Positions 13,684-22,934 of a stretch of DNA of 64,000 nucleotides are shown here, piece by piece. Position 1 is the first letter of the stretch. Every line of letters begins with the position of its first letter. Made by a program: the position numbers and the translations under genes. The notes below the pieces were generated by a model, which was given only the letters and a program-made list of their open reading frames with translations, did not search any database and was not told the origin of the DNA. Location of the stretch: sequence record NC_111505.1. One strand, written 5' to 3'. Source of the DNA: a phage.

Positions 13684-15050
13684 ACGTCCCCCTTTTCTGC
13701 TCTAGTTTCAAAATCTTTCCTGACTTTCTCGTCTAAGCCAGGGAAAGTTGTATTATAAAACTCTACGACTCGCGGGTCAACAATAATATCCACCTCTCTT
13801 AATGGACGCAACAAGTTTATTCCCTGTATCGTCTTAACCCGACTCAAGGCAACATACGTCATTCCTGGAGAGAAAGCTCCGTTCTTTCCAAGGTCCAGGT
13901 TGTAACAATCTAGCGTAAGTCCTTGACTTTTATGCGATGTTACTGCGTACCCCGATTTCAAAGGGAGTTGCTCATAAGACCCGATCACAACCCTCTCTAT
14001 GAACTTCTCCATCTTCCTTTCGGCAATATTGTACCTCTGGGAAGGTTTGTACTCGTTATTCTCCCACAATCTCGGCTCAATTTCAACCTGTGTCCCGTCT
14101 TCTAGCTCAACTACCACGGATTTAGTCTTGAATTTTACCACTGTGGCACGTGTCCCGTTGACATAATACGGAACTTTGTGAGTAGGGTCAACATCGTTTG
14201 AGGTTATCATAACCTTCATCCCTATCTTCAGCCTCATTTCCTGCTCCACAGGCAGTGTGGAAGGGAACTTACCCTTCATTTTACCAATGTAGGTCTTCTC
14301 TGGGGCCTGGATGGCATCATAGAAACGTCTGTTCACCTCCTCTGCTTGCTTATTGGTGGCGCAGATAGTCAAGGCATCTGTTGGGACACCGCCATGATAG
14401 CAACGAGTGTTAAGCTCTGCTACAACCTCTTTTATGCGACGACCTTCACGAACACAGTTCAACATTGTGGCGAAGCGAACAGATTCCTGACGGAACTGGT
14501 CTACTAAGGCTATATTGTGAAGATTAAGATCCTCCCAAGATTCTGTATAGCAACACAAATCTGTGTGGTAGAAGTTGAAGTAGGCTTCTTTCTCCATGGA
14601 AGAGACAACTGGAGGTGCTTGGTAGAAATCTCCAAACAATAACACCTGAATGCCTCCGAAAGGTTTGTCATTTTTCCGAAGAAAGCGGAGTTTTCTGTCC
14701 ATCTCTATGAACTTGTCAGCACGGATCATAGAGATTTCATCGATAATTAGGATGGTAAATGCCTTGCTTTTCAGAGGCTTTGCTGTTTTTGCCCTTATTG
14801 CTGTCCAGTCTGACTCCATGCTCACACCTGCGGCAAGATCGAAAGTTCGGTGTGCTGTTGCTCCATTAACGTTTAAAGCGGCTACCCCTGTCGGGGCAAC
14901 CGTTATGCAAGAGTCTCCATACATGGACTGGATCATGTTGATAAGATATGTCTTCCCGGTTCCACCAGGTCCACTTACGAAGACATTCTCACCACTCATG
15001 ATTGCAACAAGGGCAGCATCTGTGCCTACATCGTACTGCCCTTTCTCCAT
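13680..15050 (-). CDS. SF1 DNA helicase, Dda/RecD/Pif1-like
   Basis: Walker A VSGPGGTGKTY; ITVAPTGVAA; Walker B IIDEISMI; C-terminal TYVALSRVK motif. Confidence 0.75.
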   Translation of the reverse strand: MEKGQYDVGTDAALVAIMSGENVFVSGPGGTGKTYLINMIQSMYGDSCITVAPTGVAALNVNGATAHRTFDLAAGVSMESDWTAIRAKTAKPLKSKAFTILIIDEISMIRADKFIEMDRKLRFLRKNDKPFGGIQVLLFGDFYQAPPVVSSMEKEAYFNFYHTDLCCYTESWEDLNLHNIALVDQFRQESVRFATMLNCVREGRRIKEVVAELNTRCYHGGVPTDALTICATNKQAEEVNRRFYDAIQAPEKTYIGKMKGKFPSTLPVEQEMRLKIGMKVMITSNDVDPTHKVPYYVNGTRATVVKFKTKSVVVELEDGTQVEIEPRLWENNEYKPSQRYNIAERKMEKFIERVVIGSYEQLPLKSGYAVTSHKSQGLTLDCYNLDLGKNGAFSPGMTYVALSRVKTIQGINLLRPLREVDIIVDPRVVEFYNTTFPGLDEKVRKDFETRAEKGDV

Positions 15051-16255
15051 TACGCCTCCTCGTAGATAATGTCGATAGTGTTGCCGTCGCGGTCAACCAC
15101 GTACTCGATTGGGTCCCCATCTTTGCGCGATTCTGGAGCTACTACGATTTCGTAGCGGCATGCACGGCACTTAGCGCTGTTGTGTTGGTAAGGTACACTG
15201 ACTACATCAGCAGGGTCAACCATAACCGTCATCACAGTGCCGTAGCTCTTTGCATACTCTTTGCTGGCACAGTGCAGGCCATAAGAGCATGCAGCTTCCG
15301 GATCATCCTCTACAAAGTTACGAGGCATGGATACAAAAGCGCCCTGGTATTGTGGGACTTTACCACTGTGCCAATCCACCCACTTGTCGCCGTTAAACTG
15401 AACCCCTTTGTAGCAAATGATTCGACCATCTTCTGCAATCTGAATGTCATTTGCCTGCATAAAGTCGTAGAGCATGTTTACAGATTTTGCAGACGGATTG
15501 CGTAACAGGCGAACTAGGAATTTCACATAGCGGTCATCCAGTGTTCCATCTGCATAATCTTTCTCAATTTTCTTTGCAATAGTAGATCGCATCTCCACAC
15601 CGTAGTAGTAGAGCTTACCATCTTTCATGATCAGGTTGTCTGCCAGTGTAGTGAACTCATTCTTGCGTTCCAGCCAGACAAGGATTTCACCAATTGCCTC
15701 GTCATATTCCTGAACAGAGATATGGTCGAAGACTTTCTGGTAAACTTCCTCACTTTCGCTGCGGCGAATTTCAAAAATACCTTCGTTGCAAGTGATCTGC
15801 AAGAGTTCCCCACAAATAACTACCAGAGGCTCGATGCTTCGAGTCTGTTGCTGAGACACACTGCTCACCACCTCCAGAACCGGATCTTTGACTTCTACCG
15901 AAGGCTCTTCTGACTTGATTGCTACTCCAGTGAACCCCACACCGTGAACAACGCACAGCGGGTATACCACTCCCCAGCGTTTAAAGGACTCCTCCCCTAA
16001 ATCCAAGATCATGGCGTACTTGCCGTTGTCTTCCAGCCCATATCGGAATAAACGGGCCTCTTCGCGGGTTTCAAAATCCTCACGGGTGTAACAAACGCTG
16101 TCACGGTCAGGGTCGAACACCTCTGGGGCACCTACTGCCAGTGTCCAGGTTGTGTTACCTTTCTCAATGGCGCATGTGAAACCCTTCTTCTCAAGTTCTG
16201 CACGGCGGTCTCGTGCTTCTTTACGGGTTTTGAAATGTTCGTAGATGAAAATCAT
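15050..16255 (-). CDS. hypothetical protein (401 aa)
   Basis: no motif recognised; sits between the helicase and the GHKL ATPase. Confidence 0.5.
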   Translation of the reverse strand: MIFIYEHFKTRKEARDRRAELEKKGFTCAIEKGNTTWTLAVGAPEVFDPDRDSVCYTREDFETREEARLFRYGLEDNGKYAMILDLGEESFKRWGVVYPLCVVHGVGFTGVAIKSEEPSVEVKDPVLEVVSSVSQQQTRSIEPLVVICGELLQITCNEGIFEIRRSESEEVYQKVFDHISVQEYDEAIGEILVWLERKNEFTTLADNLIMKDGKLYYYGVEMRSTIAKKIEKDYADGTLDDRYVKFLVRLLRNPSAKSVNMLYDFMQANDIQIAEDGRIICYKGVQFNGDKWVDWHSGKVPQYQGAFVSMPRNFVEDDPEAACSYGLHCASKEYAKSYGTVMTVMVDPADVVSVPYQHNSAKCRACRYEIVVAPESRKDGDPIEYVVDRDGNTIDIIYEEA

Positions 16256-16265
16256 CTTGGTCTCC

Positions 16266-18248
16266 TTATTTGATGTTATTCTTTGTATCGATCAGTTCAC
16301 GGTATTCAATCATAGCAGGGGTGTCCCAATATTTCAAGCCTACATGCTTTAAAAGTGGATATTTCTTTTCCAATCTCGCAATATAGGCCTTCCCGCACTT
16401 AACTCGGTTGGCGATTAAGACTTTGGCACGATGATTCAGCTCACCGTACTTCCACGTGGTGCTACCTTCCCACTTGTGGAAATGTGGCCGATAATTTCCA
16501 AAATCCTGCATGGGTATAATTTTACCTAACTGTCTGTACAGGCTGTCATATGAAGTTTCATTTGCTGCGCGAGTCAGTAAGAATTTCCAAGCATCCTCTT
16601 TCAACAAATGTTCCACATTCTTCTCTGTAACATATTGGCAATCAGGATCAGTCCAAAGCAGACGAGATTCCGACACCAGGTACAGATCTTCCCCTTCAGG
16701 AATCTGGAGTGCCGCACGCACACGGTCATAATCTTGCTGGTAGATGTTACTCATCTGCCCTAGCCAACAACTTCCGCGTTGGATATCCCCCTCATACGGT
16801 ATGCAGTGCTTAATCTTCCTGAACTCTGCCTTAGTAATACGCTCACGCCGGAAGTAACCATCCTTCTCAAGTTTTTTAACCCAATAACCGGGCTCATAAC
16901 GAGTTTTTGTTTCACCTTTCTTCACAGGTCGGCGAGGAAGCTCTGATAACAATTTGACCGTATCTGCAAAGAACGGATGGTGTGCCACTTCTTTAAACTC
17001 TTTTACCAGATCCGTGTTCCGGCAATAGAAAACGTTGCGTCCGGTGATCTCGCTTAAGTAGTTACACTTATTTCGGTTATATTTACCGTCTCCGTCGTTA
17101 AATACTAGATAGACTCCTCGTAAGAATTCTACCTTTCCGTAACAAGCGTATCCTATGCGGCTTTTATTTAAGCCGCCTGCGAAGATCTCACAGTCCCCTA
17201 AATTCCCTAGTCCTGTTTCTTCCCACCGGTCATACATAAAATTCTTACCGAAGATGTGCCCGAACACTCCACTGTTCTTCATCATCTCGCGTGCTTCTGA
17301 GGATGTTTTTGCTGTCTCCAGTTCCGCAACAACTTCTGCTCCACGAAGACGGATACCTTCTTTGACAAAAGCTTCCAAACGCTCTTGGAATCCACCATCA
17401 TCGTGACCTTCTATGGTCCATTCACGTCCTGGGTTAATATTGCAGTCTCCGATAGGGATCTCTACACAAATTGCAGGATAATCTGTTAGTGTTTCCAGGA
17501 ACTTAGAACGGTAAGGTTGGTGACCCATTACCACACGACTCTCGTCAGAGCTGGTATAGCCCTTCAGGATGGTCATCTTCCAACCATCTTTTTCATAATA
17601 ATACTGCGCCTCTACTTTGTCTCCCTCCAGCATCTTGCTCGTCATCGGATCGGTGACAGTGAACGGAAATTTTGCATAGCGTAGACATGATGCAATAGCG
17701 GTGCGATATTTCAGAACATGCTCTTTCTTAACATGAAACTGAACTTTTACTCCATTGTGCTCTTCAGTCTTCCGCTCACGGATCTTGGTGACATTTGGGA
17801 TACCCTGGTCCAAGAACAATAGGTATGTGCTTTCCACACCATTGTGCACACTGATTACATCGAAAGTGTCCACCATGCTGAACGGGGCCTTTGAACCAAC
17901 ACCTTTATTGCCTACCAGATCGTTGCTGTTGCGCTTGGTTGACTCGCCGAGGTTCATGAAAGTGTTGCGGACCATCTCTTCTGACATACCGAGGCCAACG
18001 TCCTGCACAAAGAAGTATGGTTCAAGATCTGTAGGGGAGTGAATGATGATCGGAACATCACCACGTCCAGACTCAACATGAGAGTCCACAGCATTGAAGA
18101 TTGGTTCACGGCAGCTTGCCAGCACCTTATCTTCATAAATCCCTTTAATGATTAACCCAAAAGTTTCTTTGTTCAGAGAAATTGATCCCCTTGTTACCTC
18201 CAAATTCCCAGTTAGCACTGCTTTAGTTTCATTACTGTTTACAATCAT
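16266..18248 (-). CDS. GHKL-superfamily ATPase domain protein (MORC/Hsp90-like N-terminus) with uncharacterised C-terminal region
   Basis: N-box EPIFNAVDS; G1 box VQDVGLGM; G2 box GNKGVGSKAPF, in canonical order; about 450 aa of C-terminal sequence unassigned. Confidence 0.6.
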   Translation of the reverse strand: MIVNSNETKAVLTGNLEVTRGSISLNKETFGLIIKGIYEDKVLASCREPIFNAVDSHVESGRGDVPIIIHSPTDLEPYFFVQDVGLGMSEEMVRNTFMNLGESTKRNSNDLVGNKGVGSKAPFSMVDTFDVISVHNGVESTYLLFLDQGIPNVTKIRERKTEEHNGVKVQFHVKKEHVLKYRTAIASCLRYAKFPFTVTDPMTSKMLEGDKVEAQYYYEKDGWKMTILKGYTSSDESRVVMGHQPYRSKFLETLTDYPAICVEIPIGDCNINPGREWTIEGHDDGGFQERLEAFVKEGIRLRGAEVVAELETAKTSSEAREMMKNSGVFGHIFGKNFMYDRWEETGLGNLGDCEIFAGGLNKSRIGYACYGKVEFLRGVYLVFNDGDGKYNRNKCNYLSEITGRNVFYCRNTDLVKEFKEVAHHPFFADTVKLLSELPRRPVKKGETKTRYEPGYWVKKLEKDGYFRRERITKAEFRKIKHCIPYEGDIQRGSCWLGQMSNIYQQDYDRVRAALQIPEGEDLYLVSESRLLWTDPDCQYVTEKNVEHLLKEDAWKFLLTRAANETSYDSLYRQLGKIIPMQDFGNYRPHFHKWEGSTTWKYGELNHRAKVLIANRVKCGKAYIARLEKKYPLLKHVGLKYWDTPAMIEYRELIDTKNNIK

Positions 18249-18745
18249 TTATTGCGCTCCTTGTAGTAGATATGACTCCCGAATTGAGCTGTCCTCTGCA
18301 TCTTTTTTGCCCATTTCGGTCGTACTTTTGTTGTATGATAGTGTGTTGCTCCACCTGTTATATCCATAGCCATGTATGCAACATGGTTGTTATTATAGAC
18401 CTTTAGAAGCATCTTTGCAAGACTTTTAGCGTGATCCCATGAATCTTTTTCTGTCACCTTAAAAGTTTTGCCGTGGTTTGTCCACGAAAACTGGTTAGGT
18501 TGGTAGACAATCTTTCTTATAGTGTCTGGGTACTTAGGGTGAGATTTCCTGTTTAGTGTGGCAAACCCAGATGCCAACATACCCATCGTGCCATCTCCTC
18601 TGGCTTCCCTGTAGATATTGCATGCCAGAATGTTCTCCTTAGTATCCGATGGCTTGCAGGTGTGATATACTTTTTGTTTTGGTGCTGCAACAACAGGCAG
18701 CGATAAAAATGCGCTCAAAATAATAGCAAAGATTTTAATTTTCAC
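18245..18745 (-). CDS. secreted cell wall hydrolase, SleB/CwlJ-like; candidate endolysin
   Basis: N-terminal signal-like MKIKIFAIILSAFLSLPVVAAP; NIYREARGDG...GFATLNRK...YPDTIRKIVYQPNQFSW matches the Hydrolase_2 signature. Confidence 0.6.
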   Translation of the reverse strand: MKIKIFAIILSAFLSLPVVAAPKQKVYHTCKPSDTKENILACNIYREARGDGTMGMLASGFATLNRKSHPKYPDTIRKIVYQPNQFSWTNHGKTFKVTEKDSWDHAKSLAKMLLKVYNNNHVAYMAMDITGGATHYHTTKVRPKWAKKMQRTAQFGSHIYYKERNK

Positions 18746-18763
18746 AATAACTCCAAATAGAAA

Positions 18764-18782
18764 ATCCCCGCCGAAGCGGGGG
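18764..18782 (-). terminator. rho-independent terminator
   Basis: CCCCGC-CGAA-GCGGGG hairpin, followed on minus strand by AUUUUCUAUUU. Confidence 0.5.
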
Positions 18783-18794
18783 TGGTCTTAGAAA

Positions 18795-19175
18795 TTAGTC
18801 GTAGTGTGCCAAAATCTCTCCATCGTTGCAAGTTCCCTCTACGAAGTTGTGAAGATTCATGCACTCGTCTTGGTAGAAGAATTTACCGCTTTTCAGCCGT
18901 AGACCAAACAACTCCGCATCTCCACGATGGCAAGCCTCTACAAGTTCATAGATTTCATACGGTAACTCTCCATCGTCATGGAAGAACCCCGCTTTATCGT
19001 TGACATAGATGAAGAAATAGTCACTGCTGTCGCAAGCGTCTAATATTTTAAACCAGATTTCATCTACATCTTTTTCTCTGATATCGATCACGCAAGTGGA
19101 GCTGCATTCGTACTCCTTCTCCGGCTCCTCGGTCAATACCACCAGGTAGTTTCCCCGCTTACCTACTTTAGCCAT
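18795..19175 (-). CDS. hypothetical protein
   Basis: 126-aa ORF. Confidence 0.5.
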   Translation of the reverse strand: MAKVGKRGNYLVVLTEEPEKEYECSSTCVIDIREKDVDEIWFKILDACDSSDYFFIYVNDKAGFFHDDGELPYEIYELVEACHRGDAELFGLRLKSGKFFYQDECMNLHNFVEGTCNDGEILAHYD

Positions 19176-19184
19176 ACAACCTCC

Positions 19185-20369
19185 TCAAGCTTTAGCTAAA
19201 ATGGCGCTAAACTCTTCACCAAACTCTTTTACAATCTTCATCAGGTTTGGGTATGCTTTGATCAGCTGAGCAACGATCTTGTCCCGGCCTTTACCAATAA
19301 GTAAGGCATTTCCTAGGGCGTTGGGTTTCATCATCGCCATAAAGACTGAGAATACAAAGTCTCGGTTCTCATCCTTGAAATTTTCCCAAAGGAAATCAAG
19401 GAAGTTTGCCACGCAGCTAACAAGATCTTCGTCTGAGACACTTGCATTTTCCATCATATTCCGAATAGCAATACAACCTTCAGACCCAAGAATCCACAAA
19501 ATATCTGGCTGCTTAGGACCTACATACTCTTTGCAACCCCCTGCCATAATCCGACCGATTTCTGGCAAGTTTCGTTTCTTGGTGTGGTAGGTCCAGATTT
19601 CTACCGCTGCAGTGTGACCAATAGCACCTTGCAGAAGAACACGAGCCATAGCGTCAGAAATAATACCGCTGTCAAAATCGTGCAGGATGTCAGATGCAGC
19701 AACCCAAGATCGCGGTGTAGCAAAAGATGGACAATTAATCTCAGCCATAGCCTCATAATTATCGATAGCTGATGGAACTCTTTTCAGATATCCAATTACA
19801 GAGGAATGCACACCATTAAGGAATGCGTAGTCCTCAATAAATACCTCTGCACTGCTTGTAACTTCTACAATGATAAAGCGGTTAGCCAGAGGGGCTTCGA
19901 GCGCTGAAAGAACAGCACCATCCGTAGCACGGTTACCTGCAGCTACAAAAACAGAGCCCTTAGGAAATGCATAGGTGCCGCACTTGTGGTCGAGCATAAT
20001 TTGCATTGCAACCTTCTGCAGGTAGTTATCTGCATGAGTAAGCTCATCCAGAAAGATAATTCCGCTCCAGTCCGAGTCTGCAGGCCAAAATTCTGGAATT
20101 GCAAACACTGTGCGTGTAGTTCCATCTGCCTCTACAGGGATAGGTAGTCCAGACAAGTCAGCAGGATCTTTATCTGACAGCCGCACGTCAACCAGGTTGT
20201 CATCTCGCTCACCGAACATATTATCAGCAATCTGCTTCATCACCTGGCTCTTCCCCACACCCATCGGTCCTAAAATCAGGACAGATCGGTTATGACGCTG
20301 GGCAAATTGAATAATAGCTGGCAACTCGCGGACAGTGATTTGACCACTTTCGAATACGTTTCTTGACAT
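19185..20369 (-). CDS. MoxR-like AAA+ ATPase (CbbQ/CobS-like)
   Basis: Walker A GPMGVGKSQ; Walker B IIFLDELTHA; 394 aa. Confidence 0.7.
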   Translation of the reverse strand: MSRNVFESGQITVRELPAIIQFAQRHNRSVLILGPMGVGKSQVMKQIADNMFGERDDNLVDVRLSDKDPADLSGLPIPVEADGTTRTVFAIPEFWPADSDWSGIIFLDELTHADNYLQKVAMQIMLDHKCGTYAFPKGSVFVAAGNRATDGAVLSALEAPLANRFIIVEVTSSAEVFIEDYAFLNGVHSSVIGYLKRVPSAIDNYEAMAEINCPSFATPRSWVAASDILHDFDSGIISDAMARVLLQGAIGHTAAVEIWTYHTKKRNLPEIGRIMAGGCKEYVGPKQPDILWILGSEGCIAIRNMMENASVSDEDLVSCVANFLDFLWENFKDENRDFVFSVFMAMMKPNALGNALLIGKGRDKIVAQLIKAYPNLMKIVKEFGEEFSAILAKA

Positions 20370-20638
20370 TAGTAAAAGTCCTCTACTTGTGTGTAAGTGT
20401 TTTCAAAGTTTTCCAAAACAGACATCACATCGGATCTGTCAATATCATACGCAACTCTCCAGCCATATGCAACCCTTTCTGCTGTTGCCTCTTCTGGATC
20501 TAGTCGTCTGCTGGCATGAAAGAGTGTTGGAGTACACTTTCTTGCTTGCCCTCTAACTTTCCCATAATAATATCTGTGAATATCTTTGTCAAAATTTAAT
20601 TCTTTTTCTGCACGAAGTTCGTACTGCTGGTATAACAT
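20369..20638 (-). CDS. hypothetical protein
   Basis: 89-aa ORF. Confidence 0.45.
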   Translation of the reverse strand: MLYQQYELRAEKELNFDKDIHRYYYGKVRGQARKCTPTLFHASRRLDPEEATAERVAYGWRVAYDIDRSDVMSVLENFENTYTQVEDFY

Positions 20639-22905: not shown

Positions 22906-22934
22906 ACTATATCGTGGATTTAGAGTAAAGTCAA
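22906..22934 (-). promoter_or_regulatory. sigma70-like promoter (TTGACT-17-TATAGT)
   Basis: minus-strand -35 and -10 with 17-nt spacer, about 35 nt upstream of ATG 22865, in the divergent intergenic region. Confidence 0.5.

Follow-up and report, generated by a model that had tools for sequence, protein, structure and literature searches.

Secretory endolysins, such as Lys44 of Oenococcus phage fOg44, combine a cleavable N-terminal signal with a muralytic domain, and this signal makes their export independent of a holin. To our knowledge, secretory endolysins like Lys44 are the only endolysin of their phage and are encoded within the lysis cassette. Sec-dependent and holin-independent export is also used in Gram-negative hosts by the SAR endolysins (Lyz of P1 and R21 of phage 21), with SAR domains being weakly hydrophobic, Gly/Ala-rich and uncleaved anchors. 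Tail-associated lytic transglycosylases are common among phages. SleB needs muramic-δ-lactam, which is not present in E. coli murein.

The gene analysed here was annotated as gp2, "cell wall hydrolase", in the rV5 genome paper (2013), and in 2020 the signal peptide of a homologue and the conservation throughout Vequintavirinae were described (PMC7344957). The homologue CB7_83 was also stated there to be toxic when expressed in E. coli ("data not shown"). Thus, the gene has been known since 2013, and its signal peptide and conservation in the whole subfamily since 2020, and as a discovery little is added to them. The contribution of the present analysis consists of the putative throttling architecture across genera, a Cys pair, a selection analysis and a cross-lineage comparison. 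The puzzle is why large virulent phages that already encode a lysozyme, spanins and a holin candidate retain a second wall-cutting enzyme that is secreted, toxic and under strong purifying selection, and why, in three or four unrelated lineages, its gene is preceded by a terminator and begins with a weak codon. An answer would shed light either on inputs into the timing of lysis that need no holin in Gram-negative hosts, or on an early step of envelope remodelling that has gone unrecognised.

Methods

Homologues of gp2 were searched with a word-indexed method, which returned 10 proteins; an exhaustive search was then added, and 160 homologues were retrieved from the two together. A single-protein locus search with gp2 yielded three IMG/VR loci, which are too few for a synteny census. 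The signal peptide was called by hand from hydrophobicity and the −3/−1 rule. The promoters and terminators around gp2 were called as consensus matches.

Identity and conservation of gp2

The window, i.e. the whole stretch of 64,000 nt that was analysed, is from a Vequintavirus, an rV5-like E. coli phage, and the open reading frame under study is the same gene as rV5 gp2 and carries the identical annotation, "cell wall hydrolase". It is read from a GTG start at 18745 to a TGA stop:

18245..18745, minus strand: gp2, 166-aa SleB/CwlJ-family (PF07486 Hydrolase_2) cell wall hydrolase precursor
18751..18754, minus strand: Shine-Dalgarno sequence GGAG, 5 nt before the gp2 GTG, read directly

The gene was found in more than 110 Vequintavirus records. 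The amino acid identity to 115 phage records, all of 166 aa, is 95-99%, and in these records the gene likewise lies upstream of rIIA and comes with the t003 terminator. The Shine-Dalgarno sequence is conserved in relatives as well. Compared with four relatives, gp2 differs at 0-3 nonsynonymous and 15-18 synonymous positions, and with a dN/dS of at most 0.05 it is a functional gene under strong purifying selection. Due to the non-ATG start, gene callers truncate the signal peptide. The GenBank records of Vequintavirinae orthologues (CB7_83, CR3_087) use the names "SleB", "CwlJ" or "endolysin", and in rV5-like genomes the label "endolysin" conflates gp2 with the experimentally characterised lysozyme.

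Domain, fold and catalytic residue

The Pfam profile PF07486 (Hydrolase_2) is matched by gp2 over positions 2-100 of 100 with 70.4 bits (cutoff 27 bits, E = 2.1e-19), and 11,334 relatives were present in the library at E ≤ 1e-3. A further match was obtained to PHROG 938, labelled "endolysin" (E = 1.7e-27). The SleB catalytic domains 4F55 and 4FET are the only sequence matches in the PDB and also the only significant Foldseek matches there of the AlphaFold2 model of gp2 (mean pLDDT 94.8), with target-normalised TM scores of 0.75-0.79 and an rmsd of 2.7 Å over 128 columns. No second Pfam domain was found in gp2, with residues 21-35 making up a short linker. The position of the presumed catalytic residue is:

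18605..18607, minus strand: codon of Glu47, equivalent of the SleB catalytic glutamate, in the motif Y-R-E-A-R-G-D

Glu47 is aligned with the E of YGESRGE in 4F55 and is invariant in all 88 aligned homologues, so the catalytic glutamate of the Y-x-E-[AS]-R-G motif is retained in gp2. Of the invariant or near-invariant residues of the family, E47 and R66 among them, all are either kept in gp2 or exchanged conservatively (I79 for V). The catalytic Glu was reported to be essential both in SleB and in the T6SS effector T6EC3. Judged by sequence and model, gp2 is a single-domain SleB/CwlJ-type catalytic domain with its catalytic Glu in place, in agreement with the SleB/CwlJ assignment of the initial annotation, and it would act on E. 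coli murein as a lytic transglycosylase.

N-terminal signal sequence

The signal-like N-terminus to which the initial annotation had pointed has the features of a Sec signal by the heuristic applied here, and a signal peptide was reported for the homologue CB7_83 (PMC7344957):

18686..18745, minus strand: predicted cleavable Sec signal peptide (heuristic), aa 1-20, MKIKIFAIILSAFLSLPVVA, with A as the first residue after the cut

Two lysines (K2 and K4) are followed by a hydrophobic core of 16-17 residues, IFAIILSAFLSLPVV, with a Kyte-Doolittle value of 2.6-2.7 and no Gly. The cut is predicted between A20 and A21, with V-x-A before it and Pro at −4, and it is from Pro at −4 and V-x-A followed by A that cleavage by SPase I is heuristically predicted. 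A hydrophobic N-terminus is present in 144 of the 160 retrieved homologues, and AXA-type cleavage sites were seen in homologues from five phage lineages. Export and signal cleavage of gp2 are thus predicted, while the N-terminus could instead be a non-cleaved anchor. With regard to the mature part, 2 or 4 Cys are carried by 73 of 88 homologues, and Cys30 co-occurs with Cys42 in 20 of 20 cases.

Genomic neighbourhood and expression signals

The features surrounding gp2 are:

15050..16255, minus strand: rIIB
16266..18248, minus strand: rIIA (PHROG 612, E = 8e-125)
18245..18248, minus strand: ATGA overlap of the gp2 stop (TGA) with the rIIA start (ATG)
18392..18420, minus strand: sigma70-like promoter inside gp2, TTGCAA-17-TATAAT, 10/12, a consensus match only
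18755..18781, minus strand: intrinsic terminator CCCCGC-TTCG-GCGGGG followed by ATTTTCTATTT, immediately 5' of gp2, equal to rV5 t003
18795..19175, minus strand: gp3, acidic 126-aa protein, last gene before the terminator
22906..22934, minus strand: sigma70 promoter (rV5 P010), head of the leftward operon reading towards gp2

The location in the replication module that had been assigned to gp2 is borne out, since the gene lies between the MoxR ATPase gene and rIIA in the early/DNA-metabolism region, outside the structural module. Of the two flanks given in the initial annotation, the "GHKL ATPase" does adjoin gp2 and is rIIA, with its Shine-Dalgarno sequence AAGGAG inside the 3' end of gp2; the terminator is upstream (5') of the gene, its stem (18766..18781, minus strand) being placed between gp3 and gp2. 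An adjacent holin was likewise not detected here, as no holin-like transmembrane protein was found in the eight genes upstream of gp2 or in rIIA, and among ten neighbouring proteins there was neither a secreted "immunity" protein nor a holin. A constant association of the neighbouring gp3 with SleB-like genes, which might have hinted at an inhibitor or partner, was not seen: no tblastn match to gp3 was obtained near the homologues in five other lineages.

For t003 of rV5 a value of −16 kcal/mol is given (rV5 genome paper, Table S4). Mydovirus and Seunavirus have hairpins of different sequence at the equivalent position; that of Certrevirus is weaker. Four of five lineages use GTG or TTG as the start codon of gp2 or its homologue. 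The expression of gp2 looks throttled by the combination of upstream terminator hairpin and GTG start. In the minimum-energy fold of the gp2 leader the GGAG is weakly paired with the gp3 stop region; this fold is no more stable than those of shuffled sequences (z = −1.26), and sequestration of the ribosome binding site as in T4 gene e is therefore not claimed.

Regarding promoters, no stringent promoter was predicted for genes 2 and 1 in the rV5 genome paper. The late-promoter motif of rV5, TGGTAAAATA, is absent between gp2 and the MoxR ATPase gene, although other parts of the window are enriched in it. The promoter inside gp2 could drive rIIA independently of gp2, and an internal sigma70-like match (11/12) also occurs in the Seunavirus homologue. 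A promoter that escaped recognition could drive gp2. A literature search for transcriptomes of rV5-like phages found none, and we infer both the low expression of gp2 and its timing.

Role of gp2 in the infected cell

In this genus, the canonical endolysin of the Phage_lysozyme family is rV5 gp89 (LysECP26), which was purified and lyses Gram-negative cells. In phage ECP26 the lysozyme gene (87949..88419) adjoins a small membrane protein and the i- and o-spanins are located by the terminase, all outside the window; the endolysin gene is about 70 kb from gp2. Since there is a separate canonical lysozyme and the lysis genes are distant, gp2 most likely serves as an accessory lytic transglycosylase that Sec exports to the periplasm. 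It is unlikely to be the sole endolysin, and a muralytic, lysis-assisting role is plausible. Taken as a whole, it appears fairly probable to us that gp2 is a Sec-exported accessory lytic transglycosylase of the SleB/CwlJ family that is throttled, holin-independent and not the main endolysin.

Under this proposal, gp2 would be transcribed by the host RNA polymerase within the leftward early/DNA-metabolism operon, and transcripts would reach it only by reading through the terminator, about 10 nt before the ribosome binding site. Because the GTG start is weak, little protein would be made. Sec would export the precursor, signal peptidase I would cleave it behind Ala20, and a disulfide between Cys30 and Cys42 would probably be formed in the exported protein. 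The basic mature enzyme may then cleave the glycan strands of the host sacculus via Glu47 and weaken the wall alongside the cytoplasmic lysozyme (rV5 gp89/LysECP26), the holin and the spanins, and a contribution of gp2 to lysis would result.

Early export of an active transglycosylase should put the cell at risk while the progeny are still to be made. We propose the low dosage of gp2 as the answer to this difficulty.

In another reading, to which we assign a low probability, gp2 is an early periplasmic peptidoglycan-remodelling factor and not a lysis enzyme, and may act together with the envelope-associated rIIA and rIIB. Possible purposes are cell enlargement, an altered turnover of muropeptides or a wall that is refractory to superinfecting phages. 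The position in an early operon and the ATGA overlap with rIIA favour it, as does the gene order SleB-like, rIIA, rIIB, helicase, which is kept in three genera; however, in Seunavirus and Mydovirus the SleB-like gene and rIIA are about 170-190 nt apart, and Certrevirus and the phi92/phAPEC8-like phages have lost the link to rII. Support also comes from T5-like and PAK_P3-like phages with a second hydrolase in the early/replication region, from PAK_P3 gp151, which is transcribed from 3.5 min and was linked by its authors to the accumulation of cell-wall precursors, and from the SleB of Z. mobilis, a housekeeping remodelling enzyme. In a wider form, which we also regard as unlikely, the SleB-like enzyme would be an under-expressed periplasmic wall remodeller exported early in several unrelated virulent phage lineages. 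It may then be kept beside a canonical endolysin in rV5-like, phi92/phAPEC8-like, T5-like and PAK_P3-like phages; it could recondition the sacculus during infection so that the cell can enlarge, muropeptides are released, or superinfection or lysis from without is warded off, and it could be functionally tied to rIIA/rIIB in Vequintavirus, Seunavirus and Mydovirus.

The initial annotation had considered gp2 a possible signal-peptide-dependent endolysin of the phage. That gp2 is a functional endolysin, which in the manner of Lys44 is exported by Sec, accumulates in the periplasm and is set free once the membrane potential has been collapsed by a distant holin, would fit the signal peptide with the muralytic domain and the "endolysin" label of PHROG 938, and related genes are found in settings typical of lysis. 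The Hydrolase_2 protein of PAJU2 sits in a canonical lysis cassette (Q antiterminator, 3-TM protein, SleB-like protein and two small ORFs at the usual Rz/Rz1 position, one of them annotated "signal peptide motif"), in Erwinia Loessnervirus a holin is followed by a signal-bearing SleB-like protein, and a 2-TM holin candidate comes directly after the homologue in Certrevirus (PMC7344957; also seen here). CR3_087 was moreover cited as implicated in lysis (PMC7344957). On account of the holin-like ORF of Certrevirus and the PAJU2 and Loessnervirus cassettes, a more central role of gp2 in lysis is possible. Nevertheless, we judge the endolysin reading to be rather improbable, since the canonical gp89/LysECP26 is lytically active and has a small membrane protein next to it, and gp2 belongs to a sigma70 operon, follows a terminator, starts with a weak codon and has no late-promoter motif upstream. 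The PAK_P3 homologue is not late-specific either, and PAK_P3 also has a separate endolysin.

A role for gp2 as a decoy or as a peptidoglycan-binding protein that has lost catalysis is very improbable. Given that muramic-δ-lactam is absent in E. coli, such a protein could conceivably bind and not cut, but we rejected this on the conservation of the family residues including E47 and R66, and it is further opposed by the toxicity of the homologue in E. coli (PMC7344957, data not shown) and by the SleB-fold T6SS effector, which kills E. coli via the equivalent Glu. A virion-associated lysin that opens the wall at DNA injection, for which the domain type would be suitable, is the most improbable of all and was rejected as gp2 is absent from the mass spectrometry list of the rV5 virion, the gene is outside the structural module, a cleavable Sec signal would take the protein away from the cytoplasm where virions are assembled, and the role is already assigned to a gp25-like baseplate lysozyme (PMC7344957).

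Comparison with known systems

The accessory transglycosylase proposed here shares with Bacillus SleB (4F55/4FET) and CwlJ the Pfam family, the fold and the catalytic glutamate, and like CwlJ it has a single domain. The identity to Bacillus SleB is about 24%, and gp2 is without the N-terminal peptidoglycan-binding domain, so that it does not have the architecture of SleB proper, i.e. a PG_binding_1-type domain plus the catalytic domain. In contrast to SleB, gp2 is encoded by a phage, carries a Gram-negative Sec signal and is without a YpeB-type partner, and its host has no muramic-δ-lactam cortex.

Secretory endolysins of the Lys44 type differ from gp2 in that the phage of gp2 has a separate canonical lysozyme and the gp2 gene is in an early operon; gp2 does not appear as a principal lysis enzyme expressed late from a cassette. 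The Sec-dependent, holin-independent export of a muralytic enzyme, which for gp2 is predicted, is shared with the SAR endolysins. However, a core with a Kyte-Doolittle value of 2.6-2.7, Pro at −4 and the V-x-A motif set gp2 apart from SAR domains by the same heuristic. T6EC3, with a SleB-like catalytic domain as in gp2, attacks E. coli murein from the periplasm via a conserved Glu; it was reported to round and burst E. coli, an effect abolished by E108Q. Unlike gp2, this domain forms the C-terminus of a larger effector that is delivered by the T6SS and has a cognate periplasmic immunity protein, whereas no immunity-like secreted neighbour is found near gp2.

PAK_P3 gp151 and the T5.083-type proteins are, like gp2, second SleB-like hydrolases with a hydrophobic N-terminus (34-40% identity), and their genes are also located in the early/replication region, apart from the annotated endolysin. 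The same arrangement is found in Stephanstirmvirinae, with a second SleB-like hydrolase that has a hydrophobic N-terminus and is encoded in the early/replication region away from the annotated endolysin. These genes have other neighbours than gp2 in PAK_P3-like and T5-like phages, with rII linkage absent, and the CHA_P1/PAK_P3 homologue has a longer N-terminal region, which may be an anchor instead of a cleaved signal. For PAK_P3 gp151, both early and late transcription was reported.

Gene neighbourhood and identity of the region

The 4.5-kb stretch around gp2, the SleB-like ORF that corresponds to rV5 gene 2, has counterparts with 94-99% nucleotide identity in more than 100 phage records, almost all of them from Vequintavirus (rV5-like) coliphages. 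The annotated relative vB_EcoM-ECP26 has the same gene order as the window (MoxR ATPase, hypothetical protein, cell wall hydrolase, rIIA, rIIB, helicase). Moreover, 16 records titled 'Campylobacter phage' (e.g. MG065659, MG065644, MG065656) show >90% nucleotide identity to window positions 16000-20500, and the Campylobacter phage records C5 and A147 encode a SleB-like protein 99.4% identical to gp2; these records are probably mislabelled or contaminant genomes. The ORF listing returned the coordinates proposed for gp2 in the initial annotation, and the surrounding features are as follows:

19185-20369, minus strand, gp4, MoxR-type AAA+ ATPase (PHROG 1297, E=4e-110)
18795-19175, minus strand, gp3, 126 aa, acidic (pI 4.3) and Cys-rich (PHROG 12370), immediately 5' of gp2, which encodes the basic hydrolase
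18751..18754, minus strand, gp2 Shine-Dalgarno sequence GGAG, 5 bases before the GTG (read from the sequence)
18245..18745, minus strand, gp2, 166 aa, GTG start
18245..18248, minus strand, ATGA overlap of the gp2 TGA stop and the rIIA ATG (ORF and sequence reading)
15050-16255, minus strand, rIIB

The Shine-Dalgarno sequence of rIIA (AAGGAG) is located inside the 3' end of gp2, and the rIIA product matched phrog_612 (E=8e-125) and contains a HATPase_c_3 domain. The gene had been placed between a GHKL ATPase and a terminator; both do adjoin it, but the ATPase is rIIA and the terminator is located upstream (5') of gp2. Since transmembrane segments were found neither in the eight upstream proteins nor in rIIA, the observation that no holin is adjacent was correct.

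For the MoxR-type ATPase gp4, a von Willebrand A partner was not evident among the neighbours. By tblastn, gp3 had no match near the SleB-like genes of five other lineages. Table S3 of the rV5 study assigns T5.083 homology to gp3 and in the DT57C record T5.083 is the SleB-like protein, so that this row looks shifted. A sub-threshold match to the SPOR domain, which binds peptidoglycan (PF05036, 19.3 bits vs the 21-bit cutoff, residues 8-42) in rIIB, the N-terminus of which by eye seems to hold two similar repeats of ~45 aa each, is curious beside a wall hydrolase and may be a chance match.

Enzyme domain and selection

The assignment to the SleB-like cell wall hydrolases was borne out by sequence and structure. 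The Pfam search of gp2 gave a single domain, PF07486 Hydrolase_2, covering the whole profile (E=2.1e-19, 70.4 bits vs a 27-bit cutoff), and the PHROGs match was phrog_938 'endolysin'. Among solved structures, only the SleB catalytic domains 4F55 and 4FET were matched by sequence, and the same entries were the only PDB matches in a Foldseek search with the AlphaFold2 model (88-sequence alignment, mean pLDDT 94.8). Within the motif Y-R-E-A-R-G-D, Glu47 lines up with the SleB glutamate of YGESRGE and is present in 88/88 homologues; R66 likewise does not vary, and the remaining nearly invariant positions are retained or conservatively swapped (I79 for V). [quoted passage not shown] Between gp2 and four Vequintavirus relatives (96-97% nucleotide identity), 0-3 differences are nonsynonymous and 15-18 are synonymous (dN/dS <= 0.05), values resembling those of rIIA, gp3 and the MoxR ATPase. 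Thus, gp2 is a real gene under selection, and judged from sequence and model its product is apparently an active SleB/CwlJ-type enzyme.

N-terminus and predicted export

The signal-like N-terminus noted initially was likewise recovered. Residues 1-20 of gp2, MKIKIFAIILSAFLSLPVVA, comprise two lysines and a core of 16-17 residues (Kyte-Doolittle 2.6-2.7); Ala21 is preceded by V-x-A, with Pro at position -4, and cleavage is predicted after residue 20. Signal peptidase I does not accept Pro at +1, where it would lie if gp2 were cut one residue later. Comparable signals, ending in PVLA|K, PALA|K, PVVA|Q or SSQA|S, are present in orthologues of five lineages (Seunavirus, Mydovirus, Certrevirus, phi92/phAPEC8-like and T5-like phages), and the N-terminus is hydrophobic in 144/160 homologues retrieved. 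An SAR anchor was considered and rejected, as it would call for a less hydrophobic core and a less canonical c-region. The mature part has two cysteines, C30 and C42, of which C30 never occurs without C42 in the homologue alignment (20/20), and two or four cysteines occur in the mature-aligned region of 73/88 homologues, a pattern that fits a predicted periplasmic disulfide. For the Vequintavirinae homologue CB7_83, a signal peptide and, as data not shown, toxicity upon expression in E. coli were reported by Buttimer et al. (PMC7344957).

Gene callers truncate the SleB-like ORF because its true start is GTG or TTG. In Salmonella phage SPLA5a (Seunavirus; locus L003, 5001-5531) the annotated CDS begins at an internal Met (5148, not 5001), whereby the signal peptide is lost, and two 111-aa database forms (P0003, P0025) start at a Met aligned with M56 of gp2.

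Expression of gp2

Features relevant to the transcription of gp2 are:

22906..22934, minus strand, promoter P010 of the rV5 map, head of the leftward unit
18766..18781 (stem), minus strand, terminator CCCCGC-TTCG-GCGGGG followed by ATTTTCTATTT, lying after gp3 and before the gp2 ribosome-binding site
18392..18420, minus strand, sigma70-like promoter match (10/12 consensus) in the 3' half of gp2
L003 5398-5426 (SPLA5a), sigma70-like promoter match (11/12 consensus) in the 3' half of the Seunavirus SleB-like gene

This terminator is the one named t003 in the rV5 study (-16 kcal/mol, after gene 3), and on the rV5 map neither gene 2 nor gene 1 has a stringent promoter. From the sequence, the gap between the T-tract and the gp2 ribosome-binding site is too short for a promoter, and upstream of gp2, as far as the MoxR ATPase gene, there are zero copies of the rV5 late motif TGGTAAAATA. 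With up to 1 mismatch, this motif has 22 copies in the window vs 5.4 expected, mainly on the minus strand of the tail/structural region (31500-62600), a distribution that agrees with the late promoters proposed for rV5. A hairpin and T-rich tract right before the ribosome-binding site of the SleB-like gene are also found in Mydovirus (AGCCCCATTATGGGGCT-TTTTAATTT) and Seunavirus (AGCCCCTTTCTTGGGGCT-TTTTAATTT), with stems that differ in sequence from that of the window; the Certrevirus hairpin is weaker, and a phi92/phAPEC8-like phage has a promoter-like site after its hairpin. Translation of the SleB-like gene starts at GTG in the window and its close relatives and at TTG in Mydovirus, Seunavirus and the phi92-like phage; Certrevirus alone uses ATG. 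The stability of the gp2 leader RNA fold was not significant.

Taken together, the hairpin, the GTG/TTG start and the lack of a stringent promoter of its own or a late motif upstream suggest, on the basis of consensus scans only, that gp2 is made at low level through terminator read-through; for an exported hydrolase that is toxic, low dosage would be sensible. The promoter matches within the SleB-like gene could drive a separate rIIA/rIIB transcript. This expression architecture is a proposal that the present analysis adds.

Role of gp2 and comparison with other phages

At annotation and literature level gp2 is already known. In Table S3 of the rV5 study gene 2 appears as a 166-aa 'cell wall hydrolase' (pI 10.0, PF07486), and the authors of that study named gp89 (Phage_lysozyme) as lysin and gp129 as holin candidate, leaving gp2 out of the lysis discussion. 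SleB-like homologues occur in every Vequintavirinae genus, and CR3_087 was implicated in lysis (Buttimer et al. 2020, PMC7344957); the description of 'two endolysins' was taken up again in later papers. A literature search for enzymology, genetics or transcriptomes of a Vequintavirinae SleB-like protein returned none.

That gp2 is a secreted, active wall enzyme is very probable. The best-supported reading, which we consider probable overall, is that of an accessory Sec-exported periplasmic lytic transglycosylase which, at low dosage and without the help of the holin, would weaken the sacculus alongside the canonical lysozyme; that it assists lysis is a more tentative proposition, with the balance slightly against it.

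An early remodelling or exclusion factor tied to rIIA/rIIB appears unlikely. In its favour, the SleB-like homologue of PAK_P3, gp151, was put forward by its authors as an auxiliary gene and a possible reason for the build-up of cell-wall precursors, and its RNA-seq signal showed no significant early-to-late change (log2FC 0.62, adjusted p 0.34); in Gram-negative bacteria, SleB-like proteins also serve as housekeeping wall enzymes. Certrevirus, which is without rIIA/rIIB, has a 2-TM class II holin candidate overlapping the SleB-like gene (Buttimer et al. 2020, PMC7344957), as confirmed here in phage P7_Pc. A role as main secretory endolysin is somewhat less likely still. The proposal of a signal-peptide-dependent endolysin was supported with regard to a secreted wall enzyme, given the domain and signal features, and was not supported for the main endolysin, since rV5-like phages have a separate active lysozyme: the purified gp89 orthologue LysECP26 (QDB73524, 156 aa) lysed 29/29 Gram-negative strains. 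In ECP26 the gene after that of this lysozyme (87949..88419) encodes a 68-aa protein whose N-terminus has a hydrophobic segment, and the i-/o-spanins, at 77080..77762, adjoin the terminase, all at positions outside the present window. An inactive binder, with Glu47 conserved throughout, is highly improbable, and a virion lysin hardly credible, as gp2 is not among the rV5 virion proteins detected by mass spectrometry.

Relatives of gp2 were found by tblastn in 1,336 phage records. Some belong to classical lysis cassettes, so the SleB-like fold can serve as an endolysin: in PAJU2 a SleB-like protein that has no signal comes after a Q antiterminator and a 3-TM protein and is followed by two small ORFs where Rz/Rz1 usually lie, and in an Erwinia Loessnervirus a holin is followed by a signal-bearing SleB-like protein. 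The gene arrangement of gp2 has its counterpart in three other virulent phage groups, in which a SleB-like second hydrolase with a hydrophobic N-terminus lies in the early/replication region, apart from the annotated endolysin: the phi92/phAPEC8-like phages, the T5-like phages (T5.083, beside the separate L-alanyl-D-glutamate peptidase endolysin of T5; PMC7344957) and the PAK_P3-like phages, the putative endolysin of PAK_P3 being gp28 with holin/spanin candidates downstream.
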